A DNA stretch of 46,831 nt from Gemmatimonadota bacterium (GCA_036679545.1 JAZDDD010000466.1:1-46831); one strand, 5' to 3'; positions 8,452 to 26,298 are shown, counted from the stretch's first letter. Numbers and translations: made by a program. Notes: a model not told the origin generated them from the sequence alone.

Positions 8452-9380
8452 GCCTTTCGAAAGACTCGCATTTTGGCAGAGCGTGCGCGCGGGTTCGTGG
8501 CCAACTCATCCGACCCTGGCGTAACCGGTGACTTGGTCACCACCGTGCCCAGCGCCTTGCCACGACAGACGCATACCGGATGGGTGGGCGGACACACACA
8601 CGACCGAGCCCAATCGCGGAATGCGTGTTTGACGATACGATCCTCACCGGAATGGTAGGTCAACACGGCAAACGAGCCCCCCAGTGTGAGCGCATCCCGC
8701 ATTCGTGGCAGTCCGTCTTTTAATTGCTGCAACTCATCGTTAACCGCGATTCGCAAAGCCTGAAAAAGCCGCGCGAAATCAGAAGGGCCGGCTCGGGATC
8801 CCAGCACCGCCCGAATTGCATTGACCAAGTCATCACTTGTGACAAACATCTGCGTGGCACGACGGCGGCTAACCTCTGCCGCCAGACGTCGCGAACGACG
8901 TTCATCGCCATATTGATAAAAGATATCAGCTAGCTCGCCCTCTTCCGCTTCATTGAGAATATCCGCGGCCGTGGCACCGACACCGTCCATGCGCATGTCG
9001 AGTGCGGCACCGGAGCGAAACGTGAACCCGCGGTCGATTTCGTCGATTTGTTGCGAGGAAATACCGAGATCCAAAAATAAGAGATCCGGGTGGAATCCAT
9101 CGATGATGGCTAACGCCTGTTCGGATCCGAAGGACAGGAAGTGTAGGGCAACGCTTTCACCAAACCGAGCGGTCAGGTCCTCACGGACGTGTGGGTCACG
9201 ATCGAAGGCCACCACCTCAGCGCCCGTATCGACAAATATCTGCAGGTGTCCACCACCACCCGCCGTCCCATCGACAATGCGGGAGCAGTCACGGGCGAGG
9301 TCCGCCGCTTGGGCGAGCATAACGGGGATATGTCTAACAGCCAAGGTCACGATAGATAAACATAACGCCCCGCTTGGCAA
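8448..9380 (-). CDS. rsmH: 16S rRNA (cytosine1402-N4)-methyltransferase
   Basis: Motifs HIPVML, IVDGTAGGGGH, LDLGISSQQID and HSGEDRIVK. The longest ORF uses TTG at 9380, which lies inside a 13-bp hairpin. GTG at 9350 or TTG at 9344 are equally plausible starts and still retain the HIPVML motif. Confidence 0.9.
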   Translation of the reverse strand: MPSGALCLSIVTLAVRHIPVMLAQAADLARDCSRIVDGTAGGGGHLQIFVDTGAEVVAFDRDPHVREDLTARFGESVALHFLSFGSEQALAIIDGFHPDLLFLDLGISSQQIDEIDRGFTFRSGAALDMRMDGVGATAADILNEAEEGELADIFYQYGDERRSRRLAAEVSRRRATQMFVTSDDLVNAIRAVLGSRAGPSDFARLFQALRIAVNDELQQLKDGLPRMRDALTLGGSFAVLTYHSGEDRIVKHAFRDWARSCVCPPTHPVCVCRGKALGTVVTKSPVTPGSDELATNPRARSAKMRVFRKA

Positions 9381-9394
9381 TCAAGCGGGGCGTT
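9364..9394 (-). terminator. perfect 13-bp GC-rich hairpin (5-nt loop), candidate terminator or processing signal downstream of tRNA-Asp
   Basis: AACGCCCCGCTTG (9364-9376) pairs perfectly with CAAGCGGGGCGTT (9382-9394). On the minus-strand RNA it is followed by AUGUUUAUCUAU. On the plus strand it is followed by TTTTGG. It begins 14 nt after the tRNA-Asp 3' end. Confidence 0.35.
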
Positions 9395-9407
9395 TTGGAA
9401 CCCTAGA

Positions 9408-9482
9408 CGGGGCTGACGGGACTTGAACCCGCGGCCTCCGGTGTGACAGACCGGCACTCTAACCAAACTGAGCTACAGCCCC
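9408..9482 (-). tRNA. tRNA-Asp (anticodon GTC)
   Basis: Minus-strand read GGGGCTG TA GCTC AGTTTGGTTA GAGT G CCGGT CTGTCAC ACCGG AGGCC GCGGG TTCAAGT CCCGT CAGCCCC G folds as a cloverleaf of 75 nt. Anticodon loop is CT-GTC-AC. CCA is not encoded. Confidence 0.93.
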
Positions 9483-9496
9483 TCGCGTAGCCGCGA

Positions 9497-9526
9497 ATTA
9501 TACCGCCGGGGCTACTCGCGGATCAA
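9497..9526 (-). promoter_or_regulatory. candidate sigma70-type promoter for tRNA-Asp (TTGATC-18 nt-TATAAT)
   Basis: On the minus strand, TATAAT lies at 9502..9497, 14 nt upstream of the mature tRNA 5' end (9482). TTGATC lies at 9526..9521. Confidence 0.35.
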
Positions 9527-9538
9527 GGACCAGTCTTC

Positions 9539-11248
9539 TTAGTTCGCGCACGACAGCTGTTGGCGGACCTGGGGAATCACCTGCTCATACGCGGGATACT
9601 GTGTCCCGAGAAACTGCTCCGCGGTGACCTCGGATAACCCGCGACCAGCTTCCATGGCCGCTCTACCACGAGCAACATGACGCTCGTACATCGAGACCGC
9701 CTCACAGCTGTTGGCTTCCTGCACTTCGGAAAACAGATCTGAGAGATAGAAAATCGTGACGAAGCCGAGGAAGAATTGGGCCCGCTCGCGAATGGCCTGC
9801 CGCACCGGATATTCCAAGCCTTTTGACAACCAATCTGCCGCCCACCTCGGATTGCCGTTGGCCTGCAACTGCGCCATTCGCAAACCTGGGGTAACGTATA
9901 GACCGCCCACGCTGGCCGAGACACGCTCGTTAGACGACCTGCCCGCCACGGCGGTCAGGATCGAGTCAATCTCCATTGTGAGCGCGGTATCGAGCGGTAT
10001 TGTGGAATCAATGACTAGCTCGCCGATCAACACCTGGGCAACGGAAAGCCCTGCTTGCGTGTTTTCTGGTTCAATCGCAAGAATACGGCGGTTGATGATC
10101 ATCGCCGAATCGCTCAACCCAACACCGACCAATTGCAACGCGTGCGCGGTCAGATAGGAAACACGGTCGGAGAATTGGGAAACGGCGATGCCCGTCCATT
10201 TCAGCGAGCCCGTTGTATCTCCAGCGAAATCGGCCGCACCAATCACGCCAGCCAAGAACGTGGTATCACTCGCCAAGTCGGGATTTATCTCGTACCGGCG
10301 TTCGTACGCTTCAAACACGCAGTCGAACCGGTTATCCGCAACACAGATCCCGGTTTTGACCAGCATAAGTCTGTCTTCCGCCTCACCATCCAACAGGCCC
10401 TGCGCCTCGTCCAGTAAGACAATGGCGCTATCGACAAGGTTTGACTCAGCATACATCCGCGCCACCGTCTCGCGCTGTTCAACGTCGGTGGGATTGGCGT
10501 TCAGCTGAGCATGGAAGGTCCGGATTGCGCCTAACGTGTCACCTTTGGCAAGAAAAAGCTGGCTGGTACGTCTGGAACAACGATCATTCTGCGGGTCCCC
10601 GGCCGTACACGTTTGGTACGCCCAGATCAGACTGTCCTCAGGTTGGCCCGGGTGATTTGGGTAAAGTGTAAACGCCCGATTGGCCCGCTCGCGGGCACCA
10701 CGAAAGTCACTGCGGTCGCGCCGGTCGTTGCACTGCTGAACCTCACGGGCCGCCCGCACCTGACTTCTCAAGGTGTCGGCGACGAAATTCGCGAAATCAC
10801 TGGCATCAATCCCGGGCTCGCCAGTGAGTTCCATGACACCACCAAGACCGGAGCGCCCAAAATCCACCAACCGCATTTTCACCCGCGGGGCCGCGCCACC
10901 GTGAAATCGTCCGCTGATGTAGGAATCGGCAGAGACGAAACGTGCGAGCTGTTCAGTTGACGTTTCATCAAGGATCGTCGCACATCCAAAACCGGATGCC
11001 TCCAACGCCTCGCAATAGCGCTCATTGGTCACCACCCGCATTTGGTTGCGGACACGCCCGGCGAGACGGTCACGCAATTCCGCGGCAAACTCGATTACAA
11101 AGGCCGAGTCGGCAAGATTCTCCGGCCACGGCGGTGCGATGAGTATCTGCTTCAGATTTTGCTGGTTCCGGCGCCGCTGTGCCTCCGCCGCATGGGGCAG
11201 CAATGCCACTACAGTAGCCAAGACGACAGTTAACTTTAACAAAGACAT
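9539..11248 (-). CDS. secreted hypothetical protein with TPR-like helical repeats
   Basis: The long ORF is 9539..11299 with a TTG start. The internal ATG at 11248 gives a clean signal peptide MSLLKLTVVLATVVALLPHAAEA-Q. The rest is helical-repeat-like. No catalytic motif recognised. Confidence 0.55.
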   Translation of the reverse strand: MSLLKLTVVLATVVALLPHAAEAQRRRNQQNLKQILIAPPWPENLADSAFVIEFAAELRDRLAGRVRNQMRVVTNERYCEALEASGFGCATILDETSTEQLARFVSADSYISGRFHGGAAPRVKMRLVDFGRSGLGGVMELTGEPGIDASDFANFVADTLRSQVRAAREVQQCNDRRDRSDFRGARERANRAFTLYPNHPGQPEDSLIWAYQTCTAGDPQNDRCSRRTSQLFLAKGDTLGAIRTFHAQLNANPTDVEQRETVARMYAESNLVDSAIVLLDEAQGLLDGEAEDRLMLVKTGICVADNRFDCVFEAYERRYEINPDLASDTTFLAGVIGAADFAGDTTGSLKWTGIAVSQFSDRVSYLTAHALQLVGVGLSDSAMIINRRILAIEPENTQAGLSVAQVLIGELVIDSTIPLDTALTMEIDSILTAVAGRSSNERVSASVGGLYVTPGLRMAQLQANGNPRWAADWLSKGLEYPVRQAIRERAQFFLGFVTIFYLSDLFSEVQEANSCEAVSMYERHVARGRAAMEAGRGLSEVTAEQFLGTQYPAYEQVIPQVRQQLSCAN

Positions 11249-11336
11249 AAACTTACGCACGATCTGACCTCCAGCCTTTAGCTCTTGTGCAAAGCTCAAA
11301 GAGTGGGATGAAAAGCTTCATTATAAAGTACCCCAA

Positions 11337-11411
11337 TGGGCGAAGAGGGATTCGAACCCCCGACTTCCTGCTTGTAAGGCAGGCGCTCTAAACCAACTGA
11401 GCTATTCGCCC
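11337..11411 (-). tRNA. tRNA-Val (anticodon TAC)
   Basis: Minus-strand read GGGCGAA TA GCTC AGTTGGTTTA GAGC G CCTGC CTTACAA GCAGG AAGTC GGGGG TTCGAAT CCCTC TTCGCCC A is 75 nt. CCA is not encoded. The 76-aa ORF 11296..11526 overlapping it is spurious. Confidence 0.93.
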
Positions 11412-11422
11412 GCGCCGTCACC

Positions 11423-11602
11423 TTACAACGCCAAACCCACTGGGAATAGAACACAGTAGCCAAGCACCAGCAGCACAGGTGCCAGACCCGTCGATCCGGC
11501 CGCCAGTAGCAAGTATCCGGCGACAAGGGCTAGGACAGCGCCGCCCAAGAAGGCGTAGTTTTTTGGACCGAACTGCAAGCGGGCCGAGGAGTTTCCGGTC
11601 AT
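11423..11602 (-). CDS. 59-aa two-TM small membrane protein (DUF3098-like pattern)
   Basis: Below the ORF-track length cutoff. Hand translation: MTGNSSARLQFGPKNYAFLGGAVLALVAGYLLLAAGSTGLAPVLLVLGYCVLFPVGLAL*. It has two hydrophobic helices and G/C-rich third codon positions like neighbouring genes. The FG(P/K)KNY...G......G(Y/F).L motif recalls DUF3098. No clear SD. Confidence 0.45.
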   Translation of the reverse strand: MTGNSSARLQFGPKNYAFLGGAVLALVAGYLLLAAGSTGLAPVLLVLGYCVLFPVGLAL

Positions 11603-11636
11603 GGGTGTGAGAGCCTAATCGTCTACGCCGAAGTCG

Positions 11637-12431
11637 TCAAGAAGTCGCGCCCGGTTCTTTTGGAACGATCCAGCTTTCATCGAGAGCCTCCTTGCGCGCA
11701 CTGTTCGCCTTTCGCCGCCGAAACCACACCAGTACCACGGCGCCACCCACCACACTCCAAAACATGCTAAACGATGTTGCCATGACAAGCCAACCATAGC
11801 GGCTACGGACATCCTTCCGCCACATCTCCTCAAACCCCTCCAAGGTGACATGGTATGTCGCGCGGAGCGCCCCGTCAAAGTCACCGGTGCTGCCGAGTCG
11901 GGTCACGAGCGGTTCCAATCCGCGGTCTCCGCCAAGTCGCTCCAACATCAACACGGCCGACGTGGCAAACGCGTAAGCGGCGTCCGCACGCGCCGTCCCG
12001 AGTCGTAAATCTCGGCTAACCCCTTCCAGGAGGGGGGCCCTGCCCCGCACCAACGACCAATTGATGCGTAAGGCATCGAGACGCTTCCATTCCCCCGCAG
12101 CCCGACTGGCATACCCCTCGTCAAACCATCTCGGGACAAACCGGACGTGACGTCGCAACGCGAGATGCGCCAATTCGTGCACCAATACTTGACGCATATC
12201 AGGCCCGAAAACGAGAACGATCGTGTTGGTTGCCGGAAACGCCGCACCGGCACCCCATCCGGGCAGCCGGCCGCCTGTGATCGAATCGAAGACATGGGCA
12301 CTGGGCGCGAGGATAAGCCGAATTCGGTAGTCCGAGGGGTCGGTGAGACCGGGCCATTGGTGCTCTGCGTCGGCCATCCGGGCCAAAGCCGCCGCTGGAC
12401 CGGCATGTTGCGGCCAGTAGACCGCTGTCAC
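11637..12431 (-). CDS. putative zinc metallopeptidase (HExxH, peptidase-MA-like) with C-terminal TM helix
   Basis: VHELAHLAL plus the downstream WFDEGYA (gluzincin-like third ligand). C-terminal TM YGWLVMATSFSMFWSVVGGAVVLVWF. The reading frame is open and hydrophobic for 22 more codons upstream (to 12497) but holds no canonical start there. Confidence 0.6.
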   Translation of the reverse strand: MTAVYWPQHAGPAAALARMADAEHQWPGLTDPSDYRIRLILAPSAHVFDSITGGRLPGWGAGAAFPATNTIVLVFGPDMRQVLVHELAHLALRRHVRFVPRWFDEGYASRAAGEWKRLDALRINWSLVRGRAPLLEGVSRDLRLGTARADAAYAFATSAVLMLERLGGDRGLEPLVTRLGSTGDFDGALRATYHVTLEGFEEMWRKDVRSRYGWLVMATSFSMFWSVVGGAVVLVWFRRRKANSARKEALDESWIVPKEPGATS

Positions 12432-12487
12432 TCGCCCGACTTGAACGGTCTGCGGTCCCTGTATGAGAAGGGCGACAAAAAGGGCGG

Positions 12488-13345
12488 TTACGACAGGTCA
12501 GGCTCCTGGCCATCGGAGATTGATTGGAGCGTTTCTTTGCATCGTTCTCCCCACGGGCTAAACGCGTTTGCGCTGACACCGCGTTGCCAGGCGTCCAGTG
12601 CGCCTTCGCGGTTGTTGGCAAGCCATTTCGCTTTGCCCAAGTGGTAAAAGGCTTCGATCATCATGGGTGCACGTTCAATAGCCTTGTCGAAGAACGTCTC
12701 CGCATCTTCGAACATCTCGCGTTCGAAATACACCAACCCAAGATAAAAGTGCGCATACAACGTTGCCTTCTGATCGTTGTCGAGTCGGATGGCCTTTGAC
12801 AGATGTTCGATCGCTTCGCCAAAAATTCGTTTCTTGAGGCAAATGTATCCCACGTTCACACGAGCCATCGAGTTGGCAGGTTCCTTCAACAACACTTGTT
12901 GAAATGTGGCGAGTGCTTCGTCGTGGTCACCGTTTTTCATTTGCGCAGAACCGAGTTGCGTTTCGGCCTTCACGTCGCCGGGTGACAACTCGAGCGCCTT
13001 TGTGGTTGCTTGAATCGCGCCCACAAAATCACCGAGGTTCATCAGGTTCCAACCCTTCTCGATGAACGTGGATGCGCCGAGGTGATCGGCAACCATGGGA
13101 CTGGCAGCCGGCGGTTGTGCATCACCGTTGTCCGTTTCTGCCAACTCCTTGTATTCATCCACCAACACACGGATGTGTTCCTTGAATTCCGTGAGGTCGT
13201 CAATGCGTTGATCGACGCTTTTGAAGAGTGCAACGATATCTTGTTTGACTTCCGCGCGTTCGGTGCCTTTTGGCTTGGCTTTTAGCCGTCCGGCAATTCG
13301 TTTGTATTGACTGCGGAGTTCCGCGATCTCCGATTGTTCACTCAT
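12488..13345 (-). CDS. TPR-repeat protein with N-terminal coiled coil (last gene of the Che/Mgl operon)
   Basis: 285 aa. The N-terminal ~80 aa are charged and helical, followed by TPR-like repeats (ALELSPGDVKAETQLGSAQMKNGDHDEALATFQQVL...). Overlaps the upstream cheW stop by 8 nt. Confidence 0.8.
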   Translation of the reverse strand: MSEQSEIAELRSQYKRIAGRLKAKPKGTERAEVKQDIVALFKSVDQRIDDLTEFKEHIRVLVDEYKELAETDNGDAQPPAASPMVADHLGASTFIEKGWNLMNLGDFVGAIQATTKALELSPGDVKAETQLGSAQMKNGDHDEALATFQQVLLKEPANSMARVNVGYICLKKRIFGEAIEHLSKAIRLDNDQKATLYAHFYLGLVYFEREMFEDAETFFDKAIERAPMMIEAFYHLGKAKWLANNREGALDAWQRGVSANAFSPWGERCKETLQSISDGQEPDLS

Positions 13346-13829
13346 CCAAGACTCCGATCTCGACTGAACGCAATGACAGCGGTTCGGTGGACGTAATCAG
13401 TTTCGAGATTGCCAACACAATAATCGGTGCGGTCTGCTTTGCCACGATACCGGCCACGTAGTCGGCGGCCAGGCCACGCACGACCGGTGGCGGCACAGCA
13501 ATGGCGCTTGCCGACACGGTTTGCAACGACAACGCTGCATCGACAATCAAGCCTACGTTACCAAAACCGCCGGTGACAACGATGATACGCAAATCGTCTC
13601 CCGACAGCGCCGATACGGCAAACCGTTTGCGCAGATCCAACACGGGGATCATTTCGTCCCCGAAGGGCATCATGCCCTCGAAATAATCCGATGATTTGGG
13701 AAGGGCCGTGACGGGTTGGTACCGTATTACACGTTCGACATCCAAGACGTTGAGTGCAAAAATCTGATCCGCCACCCGGAACGTCACAAGCTGGATCCTG
13801 TCCGCACCCGTGTCACCCAACGCGTTCAT
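13338..13829 (-). CDS. cheW: CheW-like coupling protein
   Basis: 163 aa. CheW-domain pattern IQLVTFRVADQIFALNVLDVERVIRYQPVTALP...EGMMPFGDEMIPVLDLRKRF...IIVV...GLIVDAA. ATGA overlap with the upstream cheW. Confidence 0.85.
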   Translation of the reverse strand: MNALGDTGADRIQLVTFRVADQIFALNVLDVERVIRYQPVTALPKSSDYFEGMMPFGDEMIPVLDLRKRFAVSALSGDDLRIIVVTGGFGNVGLIVDAALSLQTVSASAIAVPPPVVRGLAADYVAGIVAKQTAPIIVLAISKLITSTEPLSLRSVEIGVLDE

Positions 13830-14266
13830 GACGCCACCGCTTGCGTATCATCGAGTTGCGCCACGACCGAATGGGTATCCAGGACGGGCAGCGCATGTTC
13901 TTCGTAGGCACCGGTTCCCAGCAACCAACGGCTCCGTGCATCGTTGCGCAACTCGCCAACAAGGACAATGACCTCCACCACATCATCCACCTCGAGCGCC
14001 ACAGGCGTGTTGGCGGATCGTATGACAACTACGGTCGTACTGCCGGCGTTTTCGGCTCCATCGGATGCAACGATACGCGACAACGGGACGACCGCCACCA
14101 CACCGCGTTCGTAACGCACCACGCCTCGGACAGACGGGGCAACACCTGGAACAGGTGTGATTACCACATTGTCAAGCACTTCGATCACGTCGCGCACCGG
14201 CAATCCGTACGGACGACCGCCCACCAAGACGACGAGCACACTCGCACCGTCTAACGTTTGTTGCAA
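13826..14266 (-). CDS. cheW: CheW-like coupling protein (divergent)
   Basis: 146 aa. VLVVLVGGRPYGLPVRDVIEVLDNVVITPVPGVAPSVRGVVRYERGVVAVVPL...VALEVDDV matches the CheW fold pattern. TTG start 1 nt after the upstream stop. Confidence 0.75.
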   Translation of the reverse strand: MQQTLDGASVLVVLVGGRPYGLPVRDVIEVLDNVVITPVPGVAPSVRGVVRYERGVVAVVPLSRIVASDGAENAGSTTVVVIRSANTPVALEVDDVVEVIVLVGELRNDARSRWLLGTGAYEEHALPVLDTHSVVAQLDDTQAVAS

Positions 14267-14267
14267 T

Positions 14268-15890
14268 TCAACCCCGTAACGCGTTCATGGTTTCGAGATT
14301 TGTTCTGGCGAGTTGATGTTGGGGATTTCGACGCAACGCCTGCTCCCACATATATGCTGCCCGGTCTTGATCCCGATTCTTATACGCGATGTTGCCGAGT
14401 TTGAAGTATACGTCATCGCCCAACTCCGGATCGATCTCAACGGCGCGTTCGTAGGACTCCCACGCGTCTTCGAACCGCCCGTGGCGATAAAGAATATCCC
14501 CCAAATTTTTTGAAAGCTGTGGCAGGACCAAACCCTCAGAAATTGCGGCTCGCAACTCGTTTTCCGCTTGTTCCAGCTCCCCACGCAGCTCGAGAATCAC
14601 CGCAAAATTGTTTCGTAACACGGCACTGCGCGGATACAATTTCAGACCTTCGTTGGCGTACCCTTCCGCCGTAACGAGATCATTGCGGGCAGCGTGTGAC
14701 AAACACATGGCCCAATACCAAATCTCACTGAGCCGTCGTTCGCCCGCGGTTTCTTTGGCCGACTGCAAGCGGGTCTCGGCGACTTCGAATTTGCGTTGCC
14801 GTAACGCGATGGCACCCCAACCCGTCAGGAACCGGTGGTCGGTGCCACCGTTGGATGCCGCTTCGCCGTAGGTAGTTTCCGCCTCATCAAATTTGCCGAG
14901 CTGTTCTAAACAAAAGGCGACATTGTACTTCACCGCCGGTGAGTCACCGCCAAGCGTTAACACACGTTGAAAAACTTCCAGCGCTTCATGCCACTCTTGC
15001 CGTTGCAGGCTGACCAGGCCGAGGTGAAAATGGGCTTCGGCGGCTTTGGGATCGAGATCGACGACGCGACGAAACTCACGGGCCGCTTCATCGAGCATAC
15101 CGGTCCGGTAAAACGCTACACCAAGATTTCGGTGCTCCTCGATCTTGGCGTCTGTGGCCACCGTTTTGGTTGCGGTCTCACTCACGCGAGAACGATGAAC
15201 GAACCCCGCCGTGATCAGGCCGTAAAGCGCCTTGCCGACGTCAAATTCGCTCAAACCCGCGCGCTCGACCACCGTGGCGACTGACCGATCTCCATCAATG
15301 AGTGGGATGATGATCCGCTGAGGTTCTGTCAGTTCCACATCAGAGTTGTCCAAGCGCGACCGATCAAGAGTAAACACCAAATCGAACGATGTGATCTTTT
15401 TCTCAATGAGACTCCACTCGTCAATCCGGCGTGCGCCTTCCAGCAGTAACGTCTCCGGGTTAATCGACAACAGAAAATCCTGTCGTTCCGGCCGAATATC
15501 GACTTCAAAATGAAAACTGCCACGTGTCCACGTGAAGAGGTGGTAGATCGCCTCCTCGACTTGTACACGCATGTAACGTTGCAGCTCTTCGGATGAAATA
15601 GCGTCCAACTCAACAAGGATTTCACCGAGCTTCTTGTCACGATCAGAATCTTGTTGTGCGACGGCGTCATCGAGCTGCTCTTTGTTGACCTTGCCGCTGT
15701 TGAGCAGGATATCACCGAGGCGGTCACGTCTGTTGACGATGGCGGCGTACGTAATGCGACCTTGGTCAAAGTAGACGTATCCAAGATTTGTTCGGTCAGT
15801 CAACGAAAGGCAACCGGTCTTTTGCCCCAACGAAAGGAGTTGGAGCACGTCGGGCAGCGAAGCTTCCTTAAGACTTCCTTTGATGGCCAT
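14268..15890 (-). CDS. PATAN (DUF4388) domain protein with C-terminal TPR array
   Basis: 540 aa. N-terminus [30 protein letters not shown]...YVYFDQGRITYA...LGDILL..G.V is the DUF4388/PATAN signature. A helical insertion, a middle region (EGARRIDEWS...LIDGDRSV..SEFDVGKALYGLI) and ~6 TPRs follow. It is a paralogue of 20036..21178. Confidence 0.85.
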   Translation of the reverse strand: MAIKGSLKEASLPDVLQLLSLGQKTGCLSLTDRTNLGYVYFDQGRITYAAIVNRRDRLGDILLNSGKVNKEQLDDAVAQQDSDRDKKLGEILVELDAISSEELQRYMRVQVEEAIYHLFTWTRGSFHFEVDIRPERQDFLLSINPETLLLEGARRIDEWSLIEKKITSFDLVFTLDRSRLDNSDVELTEPQRIIIPLIDGDRSVATVVERAGLSEFDVGKALYGLITAGFVHRSRVSETATKTVATDAKIEEHRNLGVAFYRTGMLDEAAREFRRVVDLDPKAAEAHFHLGLVSLQRQEWHEALEVFQRVLTLGGDSPAVKYNVAFCLEQLGKFDEAETTYGEAASNGGTDHRFLTGWGAIALRQRKFEVAETRLQSAKETAGERRLSEIWYWAMCLSHAARNDLVTAEGYANEGLKLYPRSAVLRNNFAVILELRGELEQAENELRAAISEGLVLPQLSKNLGDILYRHGRFEDAWESYERAVEIDPELGDDVYFKLGNIAYKNRDQDRAAYMWEQALRRNPQHQLARTNLETMNALRG

Positions 15891-17845
15891 CAGCCCATTT
15901 CCCCAATGATGTAATCAACCGGATCGGGCCATTTCCACACGACTTTTTCTGCGGTTTCAATACCACCTGACGGAGACATCACCACACCACTCGGCCGACC
16001 ACGCGCAACGGCCGCAGACTCCCGCAATGCCGTTGCACCCACAACGTCCTTGGCAGACTCTAACGTGGGTGTCTGACCACGTGCGTCGGCGGACGTGATC
16101 ACCCGTTGCCCGAGGGCTAAGACCGACCGGACCGATTCGGCACGTTGATCTGCCAGATAGTCGACCACGGCTTCCTCCACCGCGTCGGTGATACGTTCCT
16201 CAAACTGACGCGTTAGGACCATCTTGCGAAGTTCGTAATCGGGCGGTTTGAGCGTTGCAAGCAACCCTCCCTCCAACCTGGAAACCAGACGATCGTCCAG
16301 ACCTCGAATCTCGCGTGGACGACGAGAAGACGTGAACACGAGTTGTCGTTCGGATTCCAACAATACGTTGAACAAGAAGAAAATCTCTTCTTGTATTCGG
16401 TCTTGACCTCCGATGAGGTCGATATTGTCGAGCAAGAACGCAGACGCGCGGCGATAGCGTGCTCGCCATGAGGGGACCCGATTCTCGTCAATGGCCGTGA
16501 CAAGCTCGTCCATGAACACTTGGGCCGAAGTACACGCAATCCAACCGCGGTCCGGAAGCTCCAAGCCCCGGCCAATCCCGTGTAGTAGATGTGTTTTCCC
16601 CACACCCGACGGACCGATAATCACGAGTGGGTTGTACTGCGTCCCCGGTGCGGCCAAAACCGATTCTGCCGCACTCAAGGCCATCTTTGTCGATCGACTT
16701 CTGAGAAACGTATCGATCGAAAAAGACTTTGATGGCCCGGGCGGCGGTTCAAAGTCTTCCTGCGCGCGCTCGACCACAAGACGGGCCTCTTCGACACGCT
16801 CCGGGTCACGAAAGACCGGATCACCGGCCCGCTCCGGGTTACACTCAGCCACGGCGGCTTGCAACGTGAGTAACTCCGTCACGGCGTCTTCGTAGCGACT
16901 CACGGCATCGGCTGCCTCGGCGGCGACACCACCGTCCAGAGCACGCTCTAGCCGTGCCGTGTTGTAACCACGCCGTGACCAACGATCGACCACATCACGC
17001 AGATTTTGTTGCCACACATCGACCTGTTCGGTCACGGCGGCGGTCACGCCACTCAAAAAAGCGCCGAACTCATCCGCCGACCCAAACACGCCACTGGACC
17101 GACTGAGCGCCAACGCTTCGTCCGCATCGCCGCCACTCAAAACGGCCCTTCCCGCAGCGAGGGTCAAGGGGACATCACTCACCGTTTGAAACGCAATGAT
17201 GCGATTCAGATTGCCCAGCAATTCTCGGACATTTTCCGCGTCGCGTTCAGCGATCATCGCAAGAAGCTCGGCTCCCAGTTCCGCACCTCGCTCGTAGGCA
17301 CGTTGGCGCAGAATAGCTAATCGGTTGTCGAAATCAGGCGGTGCGATATCCACCACGAGACCGCCATCGATCTTCTGCAACATACGATCGTCGAGTTCGG
17401 ATAATTCGGGAGGCGGTTGGTCGCTTGTGAGCACGACCTGTACGCCGGAATCTGCCAGATCTGCAACGAACCGCAAAAGTTCATCCTGCACCTCCGGCCG
17501 CCGGGCAACGAACTGAACGTCGTCGATCAAAACGAGATCGGACGTCAGATACCGCTCGCGGAACGATTCGAGCAATTGCTGACTTGCCGCGGCGCGGTAC
17601 GCCTCCACGAAGTCATCGAGTGTCAGATAGTGCACCACACGGTTCGGATCCACCGATAACGTTTCGTGACCAACGGCCATCAACAGATGTGTTTTGCCAA
17701 GTCCGGTGCCACTGTGTAGAAACAGCGGGTTGTGTACCGACCCGGGTTCTTCGGCGACGGCATGGGCGGCGGTGACGGCAACACGGTTGCCATCTCCGAT
17801 CACAAACGTTTCAAACGTATAGCGTGGATTGAACTCCGAACTCAT
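15890..17845 (-). CDS. tandem DnaA/Hda-type AAA+ ATPase (two domain-III modules, no DNA-binding domain IV)
   Basis: 651 aa. Module 1: [74 protein letters not shown]. Module 2: [80 protein letters not shown]. No DnaA domain I or IV. ATGA overlap with the mglA stop. Confidence 0.85.
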
Positions 17846-18441
17846 CCGGGCGGCGCCTCGCTCAACTTCCTCAATACCATTTCTGAAATCGCCTTCAGTG
17901 TCTCAAAAACGCCGGTGCCATCCAACGCATCCGCGCCTATGTGTGGCACCCCGCGAAAATTTAATGCCTCATTCAGCTCGTCCGCCGTGAGGATCAATTC
18001 CTTTGGCAGACCCTGTTTGTTGTACTGGAAAACAATCGGCAATGTCCGCACGTCAACACCTTGCGCCAACAAATTCTCCTGAAGATTCTGCAAGCTTGTA
18101 AGATTTTCATCTAGCTGTCTAGCCTGGCTGTCCGCGACGAACACCACACCGTCGGCCCCCTGAAGCACCAGCTTTCGAGTCGCATTGTAGTATACCTGCC
18201 CTGGCACGGTGTATAACTGAAACCGTGTCGTGAAACCAGAAATTTTACCGAGTTCCAAGGGGAGGAAATCAAAAAACAACGTCCGATCTGATTGTGTTGC
18301 CAAAGAGACCATGCGTCCCCGCCGAGCCTCGGGCACTTTTTCGTATATGTACTGTAAATTCGTCGTTTTGCCGGAACGACCGGGCCCGTAGTACACAATC
18401 TTACACGTGATTTCACGCGTCGTGAAATTGATTAGCGACAT
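17842..18441 (-). CDS. mglA: MglA-family Ras-like small GTPase
   Basis: From ATG 18441: [33 protein letters not shown]...[14 protein letters not shown]...[13 protein letters not shown]...VFVADSQ...QYNKQ. It is colinear with Myxococcus xanthus MglA as I recall it (P-loop, switch regions, NKxD-like QYNK). The longer ORF to 18540 overlaps mglB and is Arg/Cys-rich junk. Confidence 0.93.
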
Positions 18442-18442
18442 A

Positions 18443-18913
18443 TCAACCCTGAAAGAGCGACGCGAGACTCTCGTTGAGTTCGCGCTCAAAGTCAGCCGCC
18501 AACACGGGCTCGGATGACACCGGCGCCGGATTGGCTTCATTCAACTCGTTAACGAACTCCTCGAAAAACAGGTTAACCAAGCCTAAAGAGGATTCGCGTC
18601 CGTAAATGACGAGCAACACCATCGGTCCGGAAGGGCTCTCGAACGCCGATAAGAATACGCCGTGGGTTGGCCCCTGATGGTTTAACGTCGCGAATGACGG
18701 TTCGCGAAGCATCTTCGTGATTTCCGCCGTGGACGACACAATGGCCGCGCCGAGCGCAGCCGCCGCCATGACGTCCACCGCCCGTGTGAAACCATGCTGC
18801 GCAATTACTTGGCCCGTTGGGTTCATCAAGAGAGCCAACCGCGCCCCGGATTCGGATATGAACATCTCCATGGGTTTCTCAGCCCACGGATGCACCGCCC
18901 GGACCCCGCTCAC
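18443..18913 (-). CDS. mglB: MglB-like Roadblock/LC7 protein (putative MglA GAP)
   Basis: 156 aa with the Roadblock fold pattern. ...[26 protein letters not shown]... and the C-terminal tail [12 protein letters not shown] resemble M. xanthus MglB (...RTSLGLVRL..., ...DNLFSE). Lies directly upstream of mglA, as in mglBA. GTGA overlap with the upstream gene. Confidence 0.8.
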
Positions 18914-19260
18914 GAAAAAACCTCACCGGCGCGCAGCATCTCCAACCTAACCAAACCCACGTTCGCATTGGTGTCCGTCACAATGACCACAAGAACATCT
19001 TGATTGGTGGCCAAGACCAAGACCGCGCCCTCAGAGCACTGCATATGAAGAAACCTGGGTTCGCCAGCCTGTGCGGTTCCCGAGACCCAAGTGAATTTAC
19101 CAAACACACTGGCAGCCAGGGCAGCGAGAGCCTTTCCACGGACACCCTCCATCAACGTCTCGGCGATGATCAACCCGTCGTCCCGGGCTACAAACATTGC
19201 CCCCTGGACACCACGAACCCGCGTCAAAACATCGAGCACTCCCTGTAACTGGTGTGTCAC
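18910..19260 (-). CDS. Roadblock/LC7 domain protein (MglB paralogue, MglC-like size)
   Basis: 116 aa: VLDVLTRVRGVQGAMFVARDDGLIIAE......ALAALAASVFG......FLHMQCSEGAVLVLATNQDVLVVIVTDTNANVGLVRLEM is a typical Robl_LC7 pattern. Confidence 0.8.
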   Translation of the reverse strand: MTHQLQGVLDVLTRVRGVQGAMFVARDDGLIIAETLMEGVRGKALAALAASVFGKFTWVSGTAQAGEPRFLHMQCSEGAVLVLATNQDVLVVIVTDTNANVGLVRLEMLRAGEVFS

Positions 19261-20027
19261 GGGCGTTGCCCTTCCAACCAGCCGCGGGCCGCGTCATTTG
19301 CTTTTTGCGCGAGAAAGGCCAGCCTCCCCGGCGGGACACTCCGATCTCGCATGGTTACAAGACATGTTTCACTGGTTGGTTGCGTGAGATGAACATTTTG
19401 ACTGGCCGACTCCGCGATGAGCCACTCCCATTCGCCCAAATCCAGGAGACGGGCCGTTCGTTCGGCCTCTCGCACGAGAGCGGCCACCCGCGCGGCCATT
19501 TCATCTGTGTTCGCGTCACCACCCAGCCGACCCGCCAGGACACGACCCGCGTCATCGACAAGCAACAGCCCGTGCTCGGCTCCCTCCAAACCTGCAAAGA
19601 TATTCGGTTCTTCATCACCTTCTTCGATCGTGCGCGCCGCGGTGCGGACCAGCTGAAGCGCCTGCAACACGCTTTGATCGGTAGGATCAACGGCCAACGC
19701 CGTCTCGAGATGCTCTAGCGCGGCATCGAGGTCACCGCGCGAATAATAAAGGAAACCCAATCCCTTATGGGCGCCCTGATGCCGTGCGTCGCGCTGCAAG
19801 ACCGTCTCCCAGACATGACGAGCTTCATCGGGGCGAGACGCATCGAGTAAGAGTCGTGCGTACAGATCTCTGGCGGCCGGCAGGTCGGGGTAACGCTCAA
19901 GACCGGACAATGCGACCGCAGTGGCAGATTCCAGATCACCCTTGCGCCGCAACCCCTCACTCAATCTGAGAAATACAAGGCTGTCCGGATCACGCGCAAA
20001 CTCCCGCGCCAGTGCTTGGATGTCCAC
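19257..20027 (-). CDS. TPR - Roadblock/LC7-like fusion protein
   Basis: 256 aa. N-terminal ~130 aa are TPR (GDLESATAVALSGLERYPDLPAARDLYARLLL..., GDLDAALEHLETALAVDP). The C-terminal ~110 aa (GLLLVDDAGRVLAG..EMAARVAALVREAERTARLLDLGEWEWLIAESASQNVHLTQPTSETCLVTMRDRSVPPGRLAFLAQKA) have the Roadblock alpha-beta pattern. GTG start. Confidence 0.7.
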   Translation of the reverse strand: MDIQALAREFARDPDSLVFLRLSEGLRRKGDLESATAVALSGLERYPDLPAARDLYARLLLDASRPDEARHVWETVLQRDARHQGAHKGLGFLYYSRGDLDAALEHLETALAVDPTDQSVLQALQLVRTAARTIEEGDEEPNIFAGLEGAEHGLLLVDDAGRVLAGRLGGDANTDEMAARVAALVREAERTARLLDLGEWEWLIAESASQNVHLTQPTSETCLVTMRDRSVPPGRLAFLAQKANDAARGWLEGQRP

Positions 20028-20035
20028 GATCGAAA

Positions 20036-21178
20036 TCAGGCCTTGAGAAATGCGTCTAGCGTCTGCGCAGCCTTGATAGCGCCTTGCACATGCTCAGTCG
20101 TGACGTCTTCTGCATCAGTTTCTTCATTGAGTTGCAACCAATGACCCCACCACGCGCTGGCCTCTTTCAACCGGCCCTGACGGGCGAGGGCGTCACCCAG
20201 GAGTCGATGACCGAGCGCCAAGGAGGAATCCAATCTGAGGGCGCGGCGCAACGTCTCCTCGGCGTCTTCGGCGCGTTCGGCAGCAAGATGCACCCGCCCC
20301 ATGGTCAACAGTAGTCGTGCGTCGTGTGGCTGATCGGAGAGCGCCATTTCGATCACCGAACGCGCGCCCTCGAGGTCTCTTTCACGCAGGGCTCCCTCTG
20401 CCTCGGCAATTCTTTGATCGGTGGTGTCTTCTTCGATGACAACGGGGTGGCTACTCGAGCGCCGTGCAAGGATGGTGACGATGCCGGCACTCTCCATGCC
20501 GAAGATCGTTCGCGCCACATCGAATTCCGACTTACTCAACGACTTTGCAATCCCTCTCACGTCACGTAACCCATCGATCATCGCAAGTAGCTCCCACTCT
20601 GTCGGCAATAGATCGAGTTCGCCTTCTTCGCCGGCAACCGCCGCCGTCAGTGCCGGCACGACACCAACGTGTGGAATTTTGCGTTCCATCCGCGACCACT
20701 CGTCGATCCGGCGCGCACCCTCCATAAGCAATGCTTCGGTCCTGATGCGTGTCGATGCGTCCCCCGGGACCGATTGATCGTCTTCTTCGAAGGAGAAATA
20801 ACCCTCGTGCCAACTCATCATTTCGAAGATTACTTCTTCCACTTGAAAGCGAACTTGCCGCTCCAGCTCGCCCGCGGTGATCGCACCAACGGAGATCAAG
20901 ATTTCTCCGATCTTTCGAGCGTCACCCTGTTCTTGTTGGGACCGCGCCAGCCGCAAATCGGCTTCGGCGACCTTCCCCGAGCGGACAAGAAGCTCTCCTA
21001 ACGGATGGGGGTTGCTGCGGATCTCGGCATATATCACCGACCCCGATTGTAGCCACACCGCACCCTGGTTGCGTCGGAGTTGGGAGGTTACGCGGAGGAC
21101 ACCCGTTTTCTTGCTCAAATCGAGCAATTGAAAAACATCGTGAATCCCGAGTTCCTTGAGCGGCCCCTCGATAGCCAT
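20036..21178 (-). CDS. PATAN (DUF4388) domain protein with C-terminal TPRs (paralogue of 14268..15890)
   Basis: From ATG 21178, 1 nt after the upstream TAG: MAIEGPLKELGIHDVFQLLDLSKKTGVLRVTS...VWLQSGSVIYAE...LGELLVRSGKV...EGARRIDEWSRMERKIP...MIDGLRDV..SEFDVARTIFGM, then TPRs. The longer ORF to 21373 overlaps the upstream TPR gene. Confidence 0.85.
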   Translation of the reverse strand: MAIEGPLKELGIHDVFQLLDLSKKTGVLRVTSQLRRNQGAVWLQSGSVIYAEIRSNPHPLGELLVRSGKVAEADLRLARSQQEQGDARKIGEILISVGAITAGELERQVRFQVEEVIFEMMSWHEGYFSFEEDDQSVPGDASTRIRTEALLMEGARRIDEWSRMERKIPHVGVVPALTAAVAGEEGELDLLPTEWELLAMIDGLRDVRGIAKSLSKSEFDVARTIFGMESAGIVTILARRSSSHPVVIEEDTTDQRIAEAEGALRERDLEGARSVIEMALSDQPHDARLLLTMGRVHLAAERAEDAEETLRRALRLDSSLALGHRLLGDALARQGRLKEASAWWGHWLQLNEETDAEDVTTEHVQGAIKAAQTLDAFLKA

Positions 21179-21179
21179 C

Positions 21180-23861
21180 CTACGCTGCCTCGGTCCGGAA
21201 AATGTGACTGAGTTCGTCAGCGGAGCGCAGGTGCCGGCGAGCCGAAACCGCCCGCGGACCGGCCGGATCAAGACCCACGACACGCTTCCACGCGGCCGCC
21301 GCTTCACTGTATCTTCGCAACTTAGCCTGCGCCAAGCCCAGAAAATAATAGGCATCCACCTGACCGACCTCAAATACTAGCACGCGTTGAAACGCACTGA
21401 TCGCTTCGACGAATCTGCCATCGGCCAACAGAGCCTCACCCAACGCCAACAGGGCTTGAATGTTCGTGGGGTTTCCGCGTACTAAATCTGCCAGCAGGTT
21501 TACCGCACTCCGCGCAGACCCCTGGCGGACACAGAGCCTCGCGAGCGGTAGTGCCGCCTTGGACGACCCGGGCTCGGCGTCTAACGCCGCACGGTAGGCA
21601 GCCTCGGCGGCGTCCACGTCGTTACGTGCCTCATGTAGTTCGCCGAGTTCTACGAGCAACGTCAATAACTTCGGGTCGAGTGTTAGCGCGCCCTCGAAGG
21701 CCTTGAGAGCCCGCTCGTAGTTGCCAAGGTCCACGGCGATGGCTCCCTCGACCTTCAAGATGTCGGCCCGTTGCGGCGCGCGCTTGTGCGCACGTTCAAG
21801 GACCTCCAACGCGCTTGCGGGATCCTTATTGGCAAGGAGCGTCTCGGCGAAAACAAGGAGCACGTCCGCGTCATCGGCGTGCTTGTCCGCCCACTCTCTC
21901 GCCATGTCGAGCGCTTCGCGATTCTTGTCAGTGGCCAAGAGTGCTCGGATTTCACTAATTCCCAACGGAAGGCGTTCTGGCCGTGACCGGCGGGCCTCGC
22001 GGAAACGTTCGAGGGCTTCGCCGTGCAGACCGCGACGCATAAAGATGCCTCCCAACAGGGCCTGGCCCTCACCGGGATCCGCACCCCGCGCCAACGCGCG
22101 GTTTGCCTCGGCAGCGGCCAGTTCATAAAGACCCTTGCTGACATAATCACGGGCCAATCCGAAGGCATCGTCGATGGGTTTAGACACCGTTGCTTCCGTT
22201 GACGCGCTGAGTTCCGAAAAAACGTCCTCCAAAACCTTAGGATCGAAATCGAACTCCGCTGTGCCCTCGGTTGATATATCTGCCGAAATTTCCGGAACGA
22301 CTGTTATGGAGGGATCCTCCAATTGCAGTTCGATCGCAAGTTGGAATTTTTGCGGGACGTAGTACGGGTCAATGTTTTGTGCGCGTGTCACGGCGCGTAA
22401 TGCCGCGTCGTAGTCGCCAAGGGCGGACAATGAGAAACTGAGGTTGTAATGCGCCTCCGCTGAGTTCGGCTCGCTTTCGACGGCGCGGACAAACGCATTA
22501 CGGGCGTCTTCATGTTGGCCAAGCTCGGCCATCACCAACCCAAGACCGTTCCACGCCGGAGCGCTGGAAGCGTTGCGTTCGATAACTTGCCGATAGGTCT
22601 GGGCGGCCACCTTCAAACGCCCGGCACTCAACAACAACTTCCCCAAATTGAGCACGGGCCGTTCCAGTTCCGGTTGCGAAAGCATGGCCTGGCGAAACGC
22701 GGCTAGCGCATCGCCATTGTTTCCATTATGTGCCAACGTCACCGCGAGATTATTACTGGCCAGCCCGTAGTGCTCGTCATGATGCAACGCCTCTCGGTAC
22801 GACTGCACCGCATCCGCGTAACGACCGAGTTGATGCAACACGACGCCTCGTTCGTTCCAGAGTTTTGGCCGATCCGGCATTTCACGAAGCAAGGAATCGT
22901 ACAGGTCGAGTGCGGCAGCATAATCTCGTTTGAGCGAGCTAACCTCCGCTATGGCTTCGAGCACGTGTTGGCGATCCTCACCATGATCGAGTGCTAAGCG
23001 AAATTCCCGCAACGCATCCGTCAGATAACCTTGGGAACGGAACGCAACGCCCAGATTGTAGTGAGCCATGGGATCAGGGTCCGATGGCACGCCCTCATCG
23101 CCGCCTGAAATCTCGTATGCCGCATTGGACCGATCCCCCACGTAGGGTTCCAACGAGAGGTTGGTTTGGACACGGCCAAATGACGGATTCAGACGGATGG
23201 CCTTGTTTGTGGCTTCACGTGCTTCCTCGTGGCGCCCCAAGTCGCCCAAGAGAAACGCAATCAAATAATGTGCTTCGGCATTGTCGGGATTCAGCGTGAC
23301 CGACCGCTCGAGCGAGCGCAGTGCCTCTTTTTTCGCGCCTTGATTGTACAGCACCTCACCGCGATAAAAATGTCCAACGGTACTTTCCGGGTCGATCTCC
23401 ACCGCACGGCCGAACCACTCAACGGCATCGTCCAGATTTCCCCGCCGTTTTTCGGCGAGCCCAATCTGCGTGACCGCGGCAACGTCATCAGGATTGAGTT
23501 CCAAGATGGATTGGAATTGCGCAATTGCGAGGTCAAACTGATTGAGGGAGGCGTACGCGCGCCCAAGTTCCCATTGGGATTCACGTTCTACCGGATCGTC
23601 ACGGAGACGCTCTTGCAGTTGCGCTACCCGTCGGTCGTAGAAACCCGTTTCTTCATACGCAATTTCGAGGTTGCGTTGCGCCACGCGCATTTTGGGATCC
23701 AACTCGATGGCGCTGCTAAATTCTTCGATGGCCTCATCAATCAGACCCTTCCGAAAATACAACACGCCCAAATTGTTGTGGGCGCCGGGATCGGACGGAT
23801 CGATTCGTCTCGCGAAGGAGCGGAGAGTTTCTTTCTCAGCTTCAGATAGTGCTGCAGGCAC
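21180..23861 (-). CDS. large TPR-repeat scaffold protein (893 aa)
   Basis: TPR consensus repeats run along the whole length (e.g. AHNNLGVLYFRKGLIDEAIEEFSSAIELDP, AEAHYLIAFLLGDLGRHEEAREATNKAIRLNP). GTG start 2 nt after the cheC stop. Confidence 0.88.
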   Translation of the reverse strand: MPAALSEAEKETLRSFARRIDPSDPGAHNNLGVLYFRKGLIDEAIEEFSSAIELDPKMRVAQRNLEIAYEETGFYDRRVAQLQERLRDDPVERESQWELGRAYASLNQFDLAIAQFQSILELNPDDVAAVTQIGLAEKRRGNLDDAVEWFGRAVEIDPESTVGHFYRGEVLYNQGAKKEALRSLERSVTLNPDNAEAHYLIAFLLGDLGRHEEAREATNKAIRLNPSFGRVQTNLSLEPYVGDRSNAAYEISGGDEGVPSDPDPMAHYNLGVAFRSQGYLTDALREFRLALDHGEDRQHVLEAIAEVSSLKRDYAAALDLYDSLLREMPDRPKLWNERGVVLHQLGRYADAVQSYREALHHDEHYGLASNNLAVTLAHNGNNGDALAAFRQAMLSQPELERPVLNLGKLLLSAGRLKVAAQTYRQVIERNASSAPAWNGLGLVMAELGQHEDARNAFVRAVESEPNSAEAHYNLSFSLSALGDYDAALRAVTRAQNIDPYYVPQKFQLAIELQLEDPSITVVPEISADISTEGTAEFDFDPKVLEDVFSELSASTEATVSKPIDDAFGLARDYVSKGLYELAAAEANRALARGADPGEGQALLGGIFMRRGLHGEALERFREARRSRPERLPLGISEIRALLATDKNREALDMAREWADKHADDADVLLVFAETLLANKDPASALEVLERAHKRAPQRADILKVEGAIAVDLGNYERALKAFEGALTLDPKLLTLLVELGELHEARNDVDAAEAAYRAALDAEPGSSKAALPLARLCVRQGSARSAVNLLADLVRGNPTNIQALLALGEALLADGRFVEAISAFQRVLVFEVGQVDAYYFLGLAQAKLRRYSEAAAAWKRVVGLDPAGPRAVSARRHLRSADELSHIFRTEAA

Positions 23862-23863
23862 GG

Positions 23864-26296: not shown

Positions 26297-26298
26297 CG

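Follow-up and report, generated by a model that had tools for sequence, protein, structure and literature searches.

A tandem DnaA domain-III ATPase lacking DNA-targeting domains in an MglA/PATAN/Che gene cluster of Gemmatimonadota

Why should a protein built from the ATPase of the replication initiator DnaA be encoded between the gene for a Ras-like polarity GTPase, MglA, and the gene for a PATAN-TPR protein? The question is raised by a 46,831-nucleotide stretch of DNA from a Gemmatimonadota bacterium (GCA_036679545.1, JAZDDD010000466.1:1-46831; hereafter the window), in which a minus-strand open reading frame (ORF) encodes a protein of 651 aa with two DnaA domain-III modules in tandem, here designated 2xDnaA-III. 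To our knowledge, DnaA domain III has been viewed as a machine reserved for the replication origin, every known paralog of it (Hda and, at a greater distance, DnaC and IstB) takes part in DNA transactions, and bacterial polarity modules have so far been described solely in terms of a GTPase, its GTPase-activating protein, its guanine nucleotide exchange factor and response regulators. The analysis showed that 2xDnaA-III is a DnaA paralog cut down to its ATPase parts, and a fixed component of an operon-like gene cluster in Gemmatimonadota in which its strictest partner is the PATAN-TPR protein encoded immediately downstream.

Both modules belong to the initiator clade of the AAA+ ATPases and are much nearer to true DnaA than to Hda, IstB or DnaC. 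Pfam Bac_DnaA (PF00308) matched the protein at two separate places (whole-protein E = 5e-89), and the two matches to NCBIfam TIGR00362 (DnaA) were confined to profile positions 102-335, which correspond to domain III. Against PDB sequences, module 1 (aa 5-229) scored 192 bits and module 2 (aa 373-583) scored 134 bits to the same target, domain III of Bacillus subtilis DnaA (8bv3/8btg); the scores were ~30 bits for Hda and ~22-24 bits for IstB and DnaI. The top PDB match in Foldseek was again 8bv3 (TMt 0.93, root-mean-square deviation 1.7 A, 39% identity), and the two modules aligned with each other in hhalign with a probability of 100% (E = 1.4e-57). The first-pass annotation of this locus, made from the sequence alone, had described two copies of the DnaA domain-III ATPase under the label 'DnaA/Hda-type'. 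The two copies were borne out when the modules were compared with the DnaA, Hda and DnaC/IstB clades, and the DnaA part of the label stands; the Hda part does not.

All of the motifs quoted in that annotation were recovered letter for letter. Module 1 carries Walker A GTGLGKTH (aa 46-53), LVLIDD (aa 104-109; Walker B LIDD) and box VII LDDRMLQKI (aa 151-159). Its Walker A, Walker B, sensor I (D142) and sensor II (R207) are intact and R154 of box VII is retained; the equivalent of E. coli R285, which aligns with the second Arg of the B. subtilis DnaA box VII (LEDRLRSRF), is K158. Module 2 carries GPSGVGKTH (aa 411-419), Walker B FLLDN (aa 470-474) and box VII LDDRLVSRL (aa 516-524). Its Walker B ends in D473-N474 (N474 codon AAT, 16426..16424) and its sensor-I Asp is replaced (S507), with R519 and R523 of box VII and sensor II R573 intact. 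The E. coli numbering, which we take to be anchored at D235/D236 of Walker B and to place K243, R245, D269, R281 and R285, was consistent with the alignment. An AlphaFold2 (AF2) model built on 120 homologs was confident for the single domains and not for their mutual arrangement (mean predicted local distance difference test score (pLDDT) 83.8; predicted template modelling score (pTM) 0.51). The predicted secondary structure has two helices inserted between beta2 and beta3 in module 1 (E71-75, H76-88, H92-100, E104-108) and in module 2 (E436-440, H441-453, H457-465, E469-473). A two-helix insertion at this place is the initiator-specific motif (ISM) that defines the DnaA/DnaC/ORC clade.

The 120 homologs came from a word-indexed search; all are full-length (645-684 aa) and share 46-58% identity with the window protein. 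An exhaustive representative search followed the full-length architecture down to ~32% identity (~50 distant relatives), giving >150 independent full-length relatives of 640-690 aa with one architecture and a conserved linker and tail. The organism names given among the homologs were all Gemmatimonadetes, Gemmatimonadales or Gemmatimonadaceae. A genome scan was made with one genome per GTDB species, and its statements on phyla hold for the matches listed rather than for a full census. The 12 best of the matches listed (L003-L014) were all Gemmatimonadota; 10 of these align over essentially the whole protein, and the other two (L011 and L014) end at a contig edge and have the same upstream gene order. 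The matches listed from other phyla were merely ~700-bp single-module matches to ordinary dnaA. A genuine dnaA was found in the phylum, in a metagenome-assembled genome (MAG) other than the window's: at L049 a canonical DnaA (DnaA_N, Bac_DnaA and Bac_DnaA_C) is followed by dnaN. Given this separate dnaA-dnaN pair, the tandem protein is an extra paralog and not the initiator.

The mean identity was 38% between module 1 and true DnaA, 33% between module 2 and true DnaA, and 31% between the two modules. In a neighbour-joining tree, which was unbootstrapped and is used qualitatively only, the module 1 sequences of the main family group together and the module 2 sequences do likewise. The separate clusters, together with the identities, thus indicate that the tandem arrangement is old and has been inherited as a unit.

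The DNA-binding and partner-binding domains of DnaA are absent. Neither DnaA_N (PF11638, domain I) nor Bac_DnaA_C (PF08299, domain IV, the helix-turn-helix domain that binds DnaA boxes) gave a Pfam match in the 651-aa protein at E <= 0.01, and domain III begins four residues after the protein start. The genuine DnaA proteins of the species-genome scan supplied one profile for domain IV (67 sequences) and one for the N-terminal region (54 sequences); hhalign gave profiles of the linker and tail a probability of <1% against both. The linker had no match among Pfam families or PDB sequences, profile search included, and when modelled alone by AF2 (pLDDT 81.7) it had no significant neighbour among known folds in Foldseek (best E = 3.8). 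A cryptic domain IV or domain I in the linker or tail was ruled out by these searches. The earlier statement that the protein has neither DnaA domain I nor the domain-IV helix-turn-helix therefore holds, and no recognisable DNA-binding domain was detected in the linker or tail. The Hda-type beta-clamp-binding motif (QL[SP]LPL-like) was found in the first 40 aa of 0/120 sequences. Lacking domain IV, domain I and the clamp motif, 2xDnaA-III is thus no replication initiator of the DnaA kind.

What the family has in their place is conserved in part. The disordered stretch of the linker is poorly conserved; its bundle of long helices (aa 259-364) is conserved, with E259, F260, F263, W289, G293, L325, F345 and P348 invariant. 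In the Trp-rich tail, of which the last ~40 residues are predicted to be disordered (pLDDT <50 at aa 614-631), E633, K634 and W639 are invariant in 120/120 close homologs, and the tail motif is also discernible in a relative that lacks MglA (P0160).

The gene neighbourhood is conserved too. The cluster order is shared by locus L001 and by all 12 Gemmatimonadota loci of the scan (L003-L014, among the matches listed), with identities of 74-82% for MglA and 32-48% for the tandem protein. MglA is encoded upstream of the tandem gene in 16/17 main-family loci, and the linkage to mglA is thus kept in related genomes. The PATAN-TPR gene lies directly downstream in 13/13 loci with a visible downstream region, and the stop-start junction between the two genes overlaps or abuts by 0-1 nt (TGATG, TAATG, TAGATG, TAAATG) in 12/12 of those checked. 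In the window, the stop of mglA overlaps the start of the tandem gene (ATGA, 17842..17845), whose stop overlaps the start of the PATAN-TPR gene (TGATG, 15888..15892), both as had been annotated. More distant loci reduce the cluster in different ways. L086/L087 (33% identity) encode CheY, CheC, TPR, PATAN, Roadblock proteins, MglA, 2xDnaA-III and PATAN-TPR, without CheA and CheW. L084/L085 (32% identity) encode CheW, CheY, CheA, CheW, CheC, TPR, a 248-aa PATAN protein and 2xDnaA-III, without MglA. L088, from the subgroup with a dead module-2 pocket, has rluD, 2xDnaA-III, PATAN-TPR and Peptidase_MA alone, without MglA, Roadblock or Che genes. As L088 and L084 lack mglA and keep PATAN, the constant partner is therefore PATAN-TPR and not mglA.

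To address the two ATPase sites, their integrity was counted in 169 full-length relatives (120 close and 49 distant). The module-1 pocket (Walker A and Walker B) was intact in 167/169 and the module-2 finger (R523) in 157/169; the figures for the reciprocal site were 148/169 for the module-2 pocket and 131/169 for the module-1 finger (R158). The sensor-I Asp was present in module 1 in 120/120 close homologs and in true DnaA in 34/34, compared with 1/120 in module 2. One distant subgroup has wholly lost Walker A and Walker B of module 2 and kept a perfect box VII, DDRLRSRFEGGL; other distant subgroups have lost the module-1 box VII arginines. This family-wide asymmetry would fit an essential site formed by the module-1 pocket and the module-2 finger, with the reciprocal site dispensable or regulatory.

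The first-pass annotation had arrived at a similar arrangement, an internal pseudo-dimer with 'complementary degeneracy', from K158 and N474 of the window protein. One dominant and one relaxed site are indeed seen across the family; the two residues themselves are features of a subclade and not of the family. Position 158 in the 120 close homologs is an Arg 100 times, a Gly 11 times and a Gln four times, with Lys in the window protein alone, and position 474 is Asp in 113/120. In the subclade of the window (P0001-P0008), N474 is found in 7/8 and a residue other than Arg at position 158 in 6/8; here, loss of the module-1 finger co-occurs with the D>N change in the module-2 Walker B. The paired losses represent a single phylogenetic event and are weak evidence on their own.

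The partner protein offers a possible signal input. In the downstream PATAN-TPR protein, a helical insert (aa 57-110) contains a tandem MshEN-type motif for binding cyclic di-GMP (c-di-GMP), RLGDILLNSGKVNKEQLDDAVAQQ...KLGEILVELDAISSEELQRYMRVQ, the type being defined as a tandem 24-residue RLGxx(L/V/I)(L/V/I)xxG...Q. NCBIfam NF053729 (MshE-related c-di-GMP-binding motif) scored 50.4 bits on this protein (cut-off 38) and 47.6 bits, also above the cut-off, on its ortholog in L088. Tandem MshEN-type motifs are likewise present in a helical insert (aa 60-112) of the upstream PATAN-TPR protein, with a score of 33.4 bits, below the cut-off. The PATAN-TPR proteins may be c-di-GMP receptors. In Synechocystis, the PATAN domain is an output module that binds PilB1 and PilC (bioRxiv 10.1101/2021.06.11.447907).

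We propose, with a probability of roughly one half, that 2xDnaA-III is an ATP-gated assembly switch in the MglA/PATAN polarity pathway. Initiator-clade AAA+ proteins (DnaA, DnaC, IstB, ORC/Cdc6) are ATP-dependent assembly switches or loaders, and it is because they act in this way that the protein is read as a switch or matchmaker rather than an unfoldase. ATP bound in the pocket of module 1 would be sensed or hydrolysed with the arginine finger of module 2, and the ATP state would close the two modules on each other or join protomers head to tail. The site made of the module-2 pocket and the module-1 finger, where the sensor-I Asp is lost, would bind nucleotide with little or no turnover in a regulatory role, and would be further disabled in the window lineage by N474 and K158. 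The nucleotide state would control whether 2xDnaA-III assembles with the PATAN-TPR protein, whose MshEN-like insert probably makes it responsive to c-di-GMP. Lying downstream of MglA-GTP/MglB and of the Che kinase, the assembly would set the polarity in the cell of a machine for surface motility, for which type IV pili are the most plausible candidate.

Several findings weigh against this reading. The relative orientation of the modules in the AF2 model is of low confidence, and a single site shared between the module-1 pocket and the module-2 finger depends on it. No type IV pilus genes were found within the window or the Gemmatimonadota loci examined. Adjacency and overlapping junctions are circumstantial: in L088, rluD has the same ATGA overlap with the tandem gene, and overlap alone is therefore no proof of stoichiometric coupling to MglA. 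The stoichiometric co-production of GTPase and ATPase that had been read from the mglA junction is thus not established by the overlap. The DnaA-like residues for contact with single-stranded DNA (ssDNA) that module 2 retains, described below, are not explained by an assembly switch. A further Gemmatimonadota protein of tandem type, P0156 (697 aa), stands in an unrelated context without PATAN or MglA, its locus (L091 10001..12094, Gemmatimonadetes MAG GCA_003697105.1) encoding two bactofilins, tsaD, gatCA and several Pfam-less proteins. Both of its modules are fully DnaA-like; proteins of this kind were rejected as members of the same family on account of the differing context and of a cluster nearer to true DnaA.

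A last point against the proposal concerns proteins in which MshEN and DnaA domain III are fused. Among the finds of the representative search were giant proteins of 1876 and 1990 aa, in which an MshEN domain at the N terminus is joined to two DnaA-III modules. There are also ~15 clusters of ~400-aa MshEN-DnaA-III proteins, one of which was named Candidatus Fermentibacteria. At L083 (MAG GCA_030620115.1), a type IV pilus cluster with prepilin peptidase, PilB, PilT, PilC and PilS/PilR contains MshEN-DnaA-III genes; of four consecutive MshEN genes (4309..15923), three are fused to DnaA-III (983, 398 and 1990 aa). The ATPase modules of the fusions share 37-51% identity with true DnaA and 29-37% with the main tandem family, and the fusions are a parallel recruitment rather than orthologs of that family. 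They had been considered as 'Rosetta-stone' proof of a physical link and were downgraded to an analogy, since true DnaA is at least as close to their ATPase modules as the tandem family is. As an analogy, which speaks for the proposal, they show that pairings of DnaA modules without domain IV with c-di-GMP receptor modules have arisen more than once in the setting of motility.

The residues that contact ssDNA in DnaA bear on the main rival explanation, in which the protein is a nucleic-acid-dependent scaffold: module 2 would bind ssDNA, RNA or the nucleoid, and short DnaA-like ATP-dependent filaments would hold the polarity/chemosensory complex to the chromosome or place it there. The ParA-type ATPases (PpfA/ParC) of che operons, for which the nucleoid serves as a matrix, provide an analogy. 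Module 2 retains the DnaA-like residues L448 (119/120), K481 (104/120) and R483 (112/120), where true DnaA has I/V, K and R in the H- and B-motifs. The ISM helices, which line the ssDNA path in DnaA, are predicted in both modules, and the Foldseek matches include the ssDNA-bound DnaA structure 3r8f. In module 1, however, the hydrophobic H-motif position (84) is His in 99/120 (His/Asn, H/R variants) and the B-motif Arg is an invariant Glu (E118, 120/120), which would leave every second subunit of a filament without contacts. The window protein itself has Gln at position 481, the H- and B-motif positions drift in distant relatives, and there is no domain IV for origin targeting. We consider a scaffold of this kind rather unlikely.

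A regulator of the replication cycle would instead form a hetero-oligomer with genuine DnaA through domain III and use an Hda-like finger to inactivate or sequester DnaA-ATP, coupling polarity or division to initiation. Module 1 is closer on average to true DnaA domain III than to module 2 (38% against 31%), and the box VII arginines of module 2 are conserved. The cluster is a constant neighbour of the dcw division genes, and in L088 it is closely preceded by a DivIVA gene. The adjacency to dcw may however be phylum-level synteny, the clamp-binding motif is missing throughout, and no link to dnaA/dnaN loci was seen; the genes with which it has been closely inherited since ancient times are those of PATAN-TPR, MglA and Roadblock, not those of replication. 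Such a role appears quite improbable.

It is scarcely conceivable that the ORF is the genuine DnaA of the organism, or that an assembly error or frameshift has joined two neighbouring genes in it: the TIGR00362 total of 443.8 does exceed 343.9, the cut-off for DnaA equivalogs, and in JGI many family members go under the name 'chromosomal replication initiator protein DnaA', but the score sums two domain-III matches in a protein without domains I and IV, a canonical dnaA-dnaN pair exists in the phylum, and a fusion artefact is excluded by the 120 homologs at 46-58% identity and dozens more to ~32%, with linker and tail conserved in >150 full-length relatives. Other database names for the family are 'DnaA/Hda family protein' and 'AAA family ATPase'. 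The summed score and the DnaA names constitute a systematic misannotation risk, which can mislead origin prediction and gene-content analyses in Gemmatimonadota.

The assembly switch can be set beside known systems, from which the fold and the clade are familiar; its novelty lies in the tandem architecture, in the linker and tail and in the signalling context. With DnaA, 2xDnaA-III shares the sequence and fold of domain III, Walker A and B, box VII, sensor II and the two-helix ISM insert. It differs in having two modules per chain, in the absence of domains I, II and IV, in its location away from dnaN, in the missing sensor-I Asp of module 2 and in the missing ssDNA-contacting H- and B-motif residues of module 1. 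Hda/HdaA is likewise a DnaA-domain-III-only protein that relies on an arginine finger, but it is a single module with an N-terminal clamp-binding motif, whereas 2xDnaA-III is a tandem without that motif, and the Hda profile TIGR03420 scored 153 on it, below the cut-off of 194.8. IstB, DnaC and DnaI are initiator-clade AAA+ proteins and ATP-gated matchmakers rather than unfoldases, the logic proposed here for 2xDnaA-III; its similarity to IstB is weak (23 bits in PDB; NF038214 79.9 against a cut-off of 200), and the window has no transposase or helicase context.

The MglA-MglB module of Myxococcus and Thermus (with RomR/RomX, SgmX, FrzS and the Frz Che system) resembles the present cluster in MglA, Roadblock/MglB-like proteins, a large TPR protein and Che proteins; here, a single cluster holds all components and adds PATAN proteins and a DnaA-type ATPase of tandem build to them. 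No AAA+ partner of MglA was described in the literature found on MglA/MglB polarity systems, and a survey of MglA mentions PATAN neighbours and no AAA+ or DnaA protein (PMC4316618). PatA-type regulators of the cyanobacterial Tax systems share the occurrence of PATAN (DUF4388) in chemotaxis-like clusters. They combine PATAN with a receiver domain; here, PATAN is combined with TPR and paired with a DnaA-type ATPase, a pairing not reported for cyanobacteria. The MshEN-DnaA-III fusions have in common with the window a DnaA domain III without domain IV and a c-di-GMP-binding MshEN module. Their link is in cis, by fusion, in a type IV pilus cluster, whereas in the window it is in trans, through a neighbouring gene. 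In the literature, no description was found of a DnaA-type ATPase tied to MglA, Roadblock, PATAN, MshEN or Che systems.

The large conserved family thus places two DnaA-III modules without DNA-targeting domains inside a cluster of Ras-like GTPase, Roadblock, PATAN and Che genes, a finding from the comparative genomics of a little-studied phylum that would surprise specialists in replication and in motility alike. If the assembly-switch reading is true, an ATP-driven component is added to bacterial polarity modules, with a testable link among MglA, c-di-GMP and the output of PATAN. A further step, which we offer only tentatively and regard as somewhat doubtful, would be a new class of polarity nucleotide switch: a DnaA-derived tandem AAA+ protein, released from DNA, would polymerise or clamp in an ATP-dependent manner with a c-di-GMP-sensing PATAN-TPR protein, integrating MglA-GTP, Che phosphorylation and c-di-GMP to position the motility machine. 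On that view, bacteria of the FCB group would have turned the ATPase fold of the replication initiator to the control of pili or polarity on two occasions or more, in the Gemmatimonadota tandems and in the Fermentibacteria-type MshEN fusions.

The features of the gene and of its neighbourhood are collected in Table 1. On the minus strand, the order is ileS, lspA, rluD, CheW, CheY, CheA, CheC/X, TPR (893 aa), PATAN-TPR, TPR-Roadblock, Roadblock, Roadblock, MglA, 2xDnaA-III, PATAN-TPR (540 aa), CheW, CheW, TPR (285 aa), Peptidase_MA, a 586-aa protein, rsmH, ftsI, murE, murF, mraY and murD.

Table 1. Positions of the tandem gene, its parts and the genes of the surrounding cluster, in window coordinates.
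Feature	Position	Strand	Evidence or remark
2xDnaA-III gene (tandem DnaA-domain-III protein, 651 aa)	15890..17845	-	ORF, ATG start; two Bac_DnaA stretches
Module 1 (aa 5-231)	17153..17833	-	AAA+ core and lid, two-helix ISM insert
Linker (aa 232-372)	16730..17152	-	Disordered aa ~240-258, three-helix bundle aa 259-364, PPPGPS hinge; predicted in AF2 models
Module 2 (aa 373-598)	16052..16729	-	AAA+ core and lid with ISM
C-terminal tail (aa 599-651)	15890..16051	-	Conserved S-R-E-K-[MV]-V-W-x-W-P-D...R-V-I-E-E; predicted disordered
CheW, 126 aa, first gene of the cluster	26658..27038	-	ORF; syntenic gene in L001 is CheW
CheY-like receiver, 120 aa	26299..26661	-	ORF; syntenic gene in L001 is Response_reg
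CheA histidine kinase	24548..26296	-	Pfam Hpt, P2, H-kinase_dim, HATPase_c, CheW
CheC/CheX-type phosphatase	23864..24487	-	Pfam CheC E = 6e-19
Large TPR protein, 893 aa	21180..23861	-	ORF; syntenic in related loci, 38-58% identity
Upstream PATAN-TPR, ~381 aa	20036..21181	-	Pfam DUF4388 E = 1.4e-31; listed ORF over-extended to 21373
TPR-Roadblock fusion, 256 aa	19257..20027	-	Pfam TPR and Robl_LC7 E = 2.5e-9
Roadblock/LC7 (MglB-like), 116 aa	18910..19260	-	Pfam Robl_LC7 E = 4.7e-11
Roadblock/LC7 (MglB-like), 156 aa	18443..18913	-	Pfam Robl_LC7 E = 1e-4; syntenic in all loci
mglA, 199 aa	17842..18441	-	249 bits, full length, to M. xanthus MglA 6hjh
Downstream PATAN(DUF4388)-TPR protein, 540 aa	14268..15890	-	Pfam DUF4388 E = 4.7e-38
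Two CheW genes	13826..14266 and 13338..13829	-	Pfam CheW E = 1.9e-16 and 3.1e-25
TPR protein, 285 aa	12488..13345	-	Pfam TPR; syntenic, 54-60% identity
Peptidase_MA_2-family protein	11637..12431	-	Pfam E = 5e-10; trails the cluster in all relatives, including minimal L088

The MglA of the window is genuine and of group-1 type, and with the three adjacent genes that carry Robl_LC7 it forms an MglA/MglB-type neighbourhood. The maximal mglA ORF (17842..18540, minus strand, 232 aa) reaches too far and runs into the Roadblock gene upstream; the true start is the Met at 18441, from which the homologs and the PDB MglA sequences align. The Che set of the window (13338..27038) comprises CheW, CheY, CheA, CheC/X and two further CheW proteins, with no methyl-accepting chemotaxis protein, CheR, CheB or CheD. 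As L001 and L002 have CheR-CheD-CheB between PATAN-TPR and the CheW pair, these adaptation genes have been lost or moved in the window lineage. In L084, an AAA_22/nSTAND-like P-loop protein (272 aa, 4035..4853) is encoded between CheA and CheW. An anti-phage defence role was rejected, as PADLOC gave P-loop-level matches at E >= 1e-6 alone and 0 qualifying stretches. A 46-bit PADLOC match of the 893-aa TPR protein to the 'PrimPol' model (aa 403-472) is almost certainly an artefact of the TPR repeats.

The flanks of the cluster are conserved, with ileS-lspA-rluD on one side and the dcw cluster (rsmH-ftsI-murE-murF-mraY-murD) on the other (window 954..11299 and 27106..32210; also L001, L086 and L088). 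This conserved chromosomal position may reflect a tie to division or nothing more than synteny. A CdaA-type diadenylate cyclase (a cyclic di-AMP synthase; 36861..37676, minus strand) is encoded upstream of the cluster, following folP and ftsH, in an ordinary housekeeping context.

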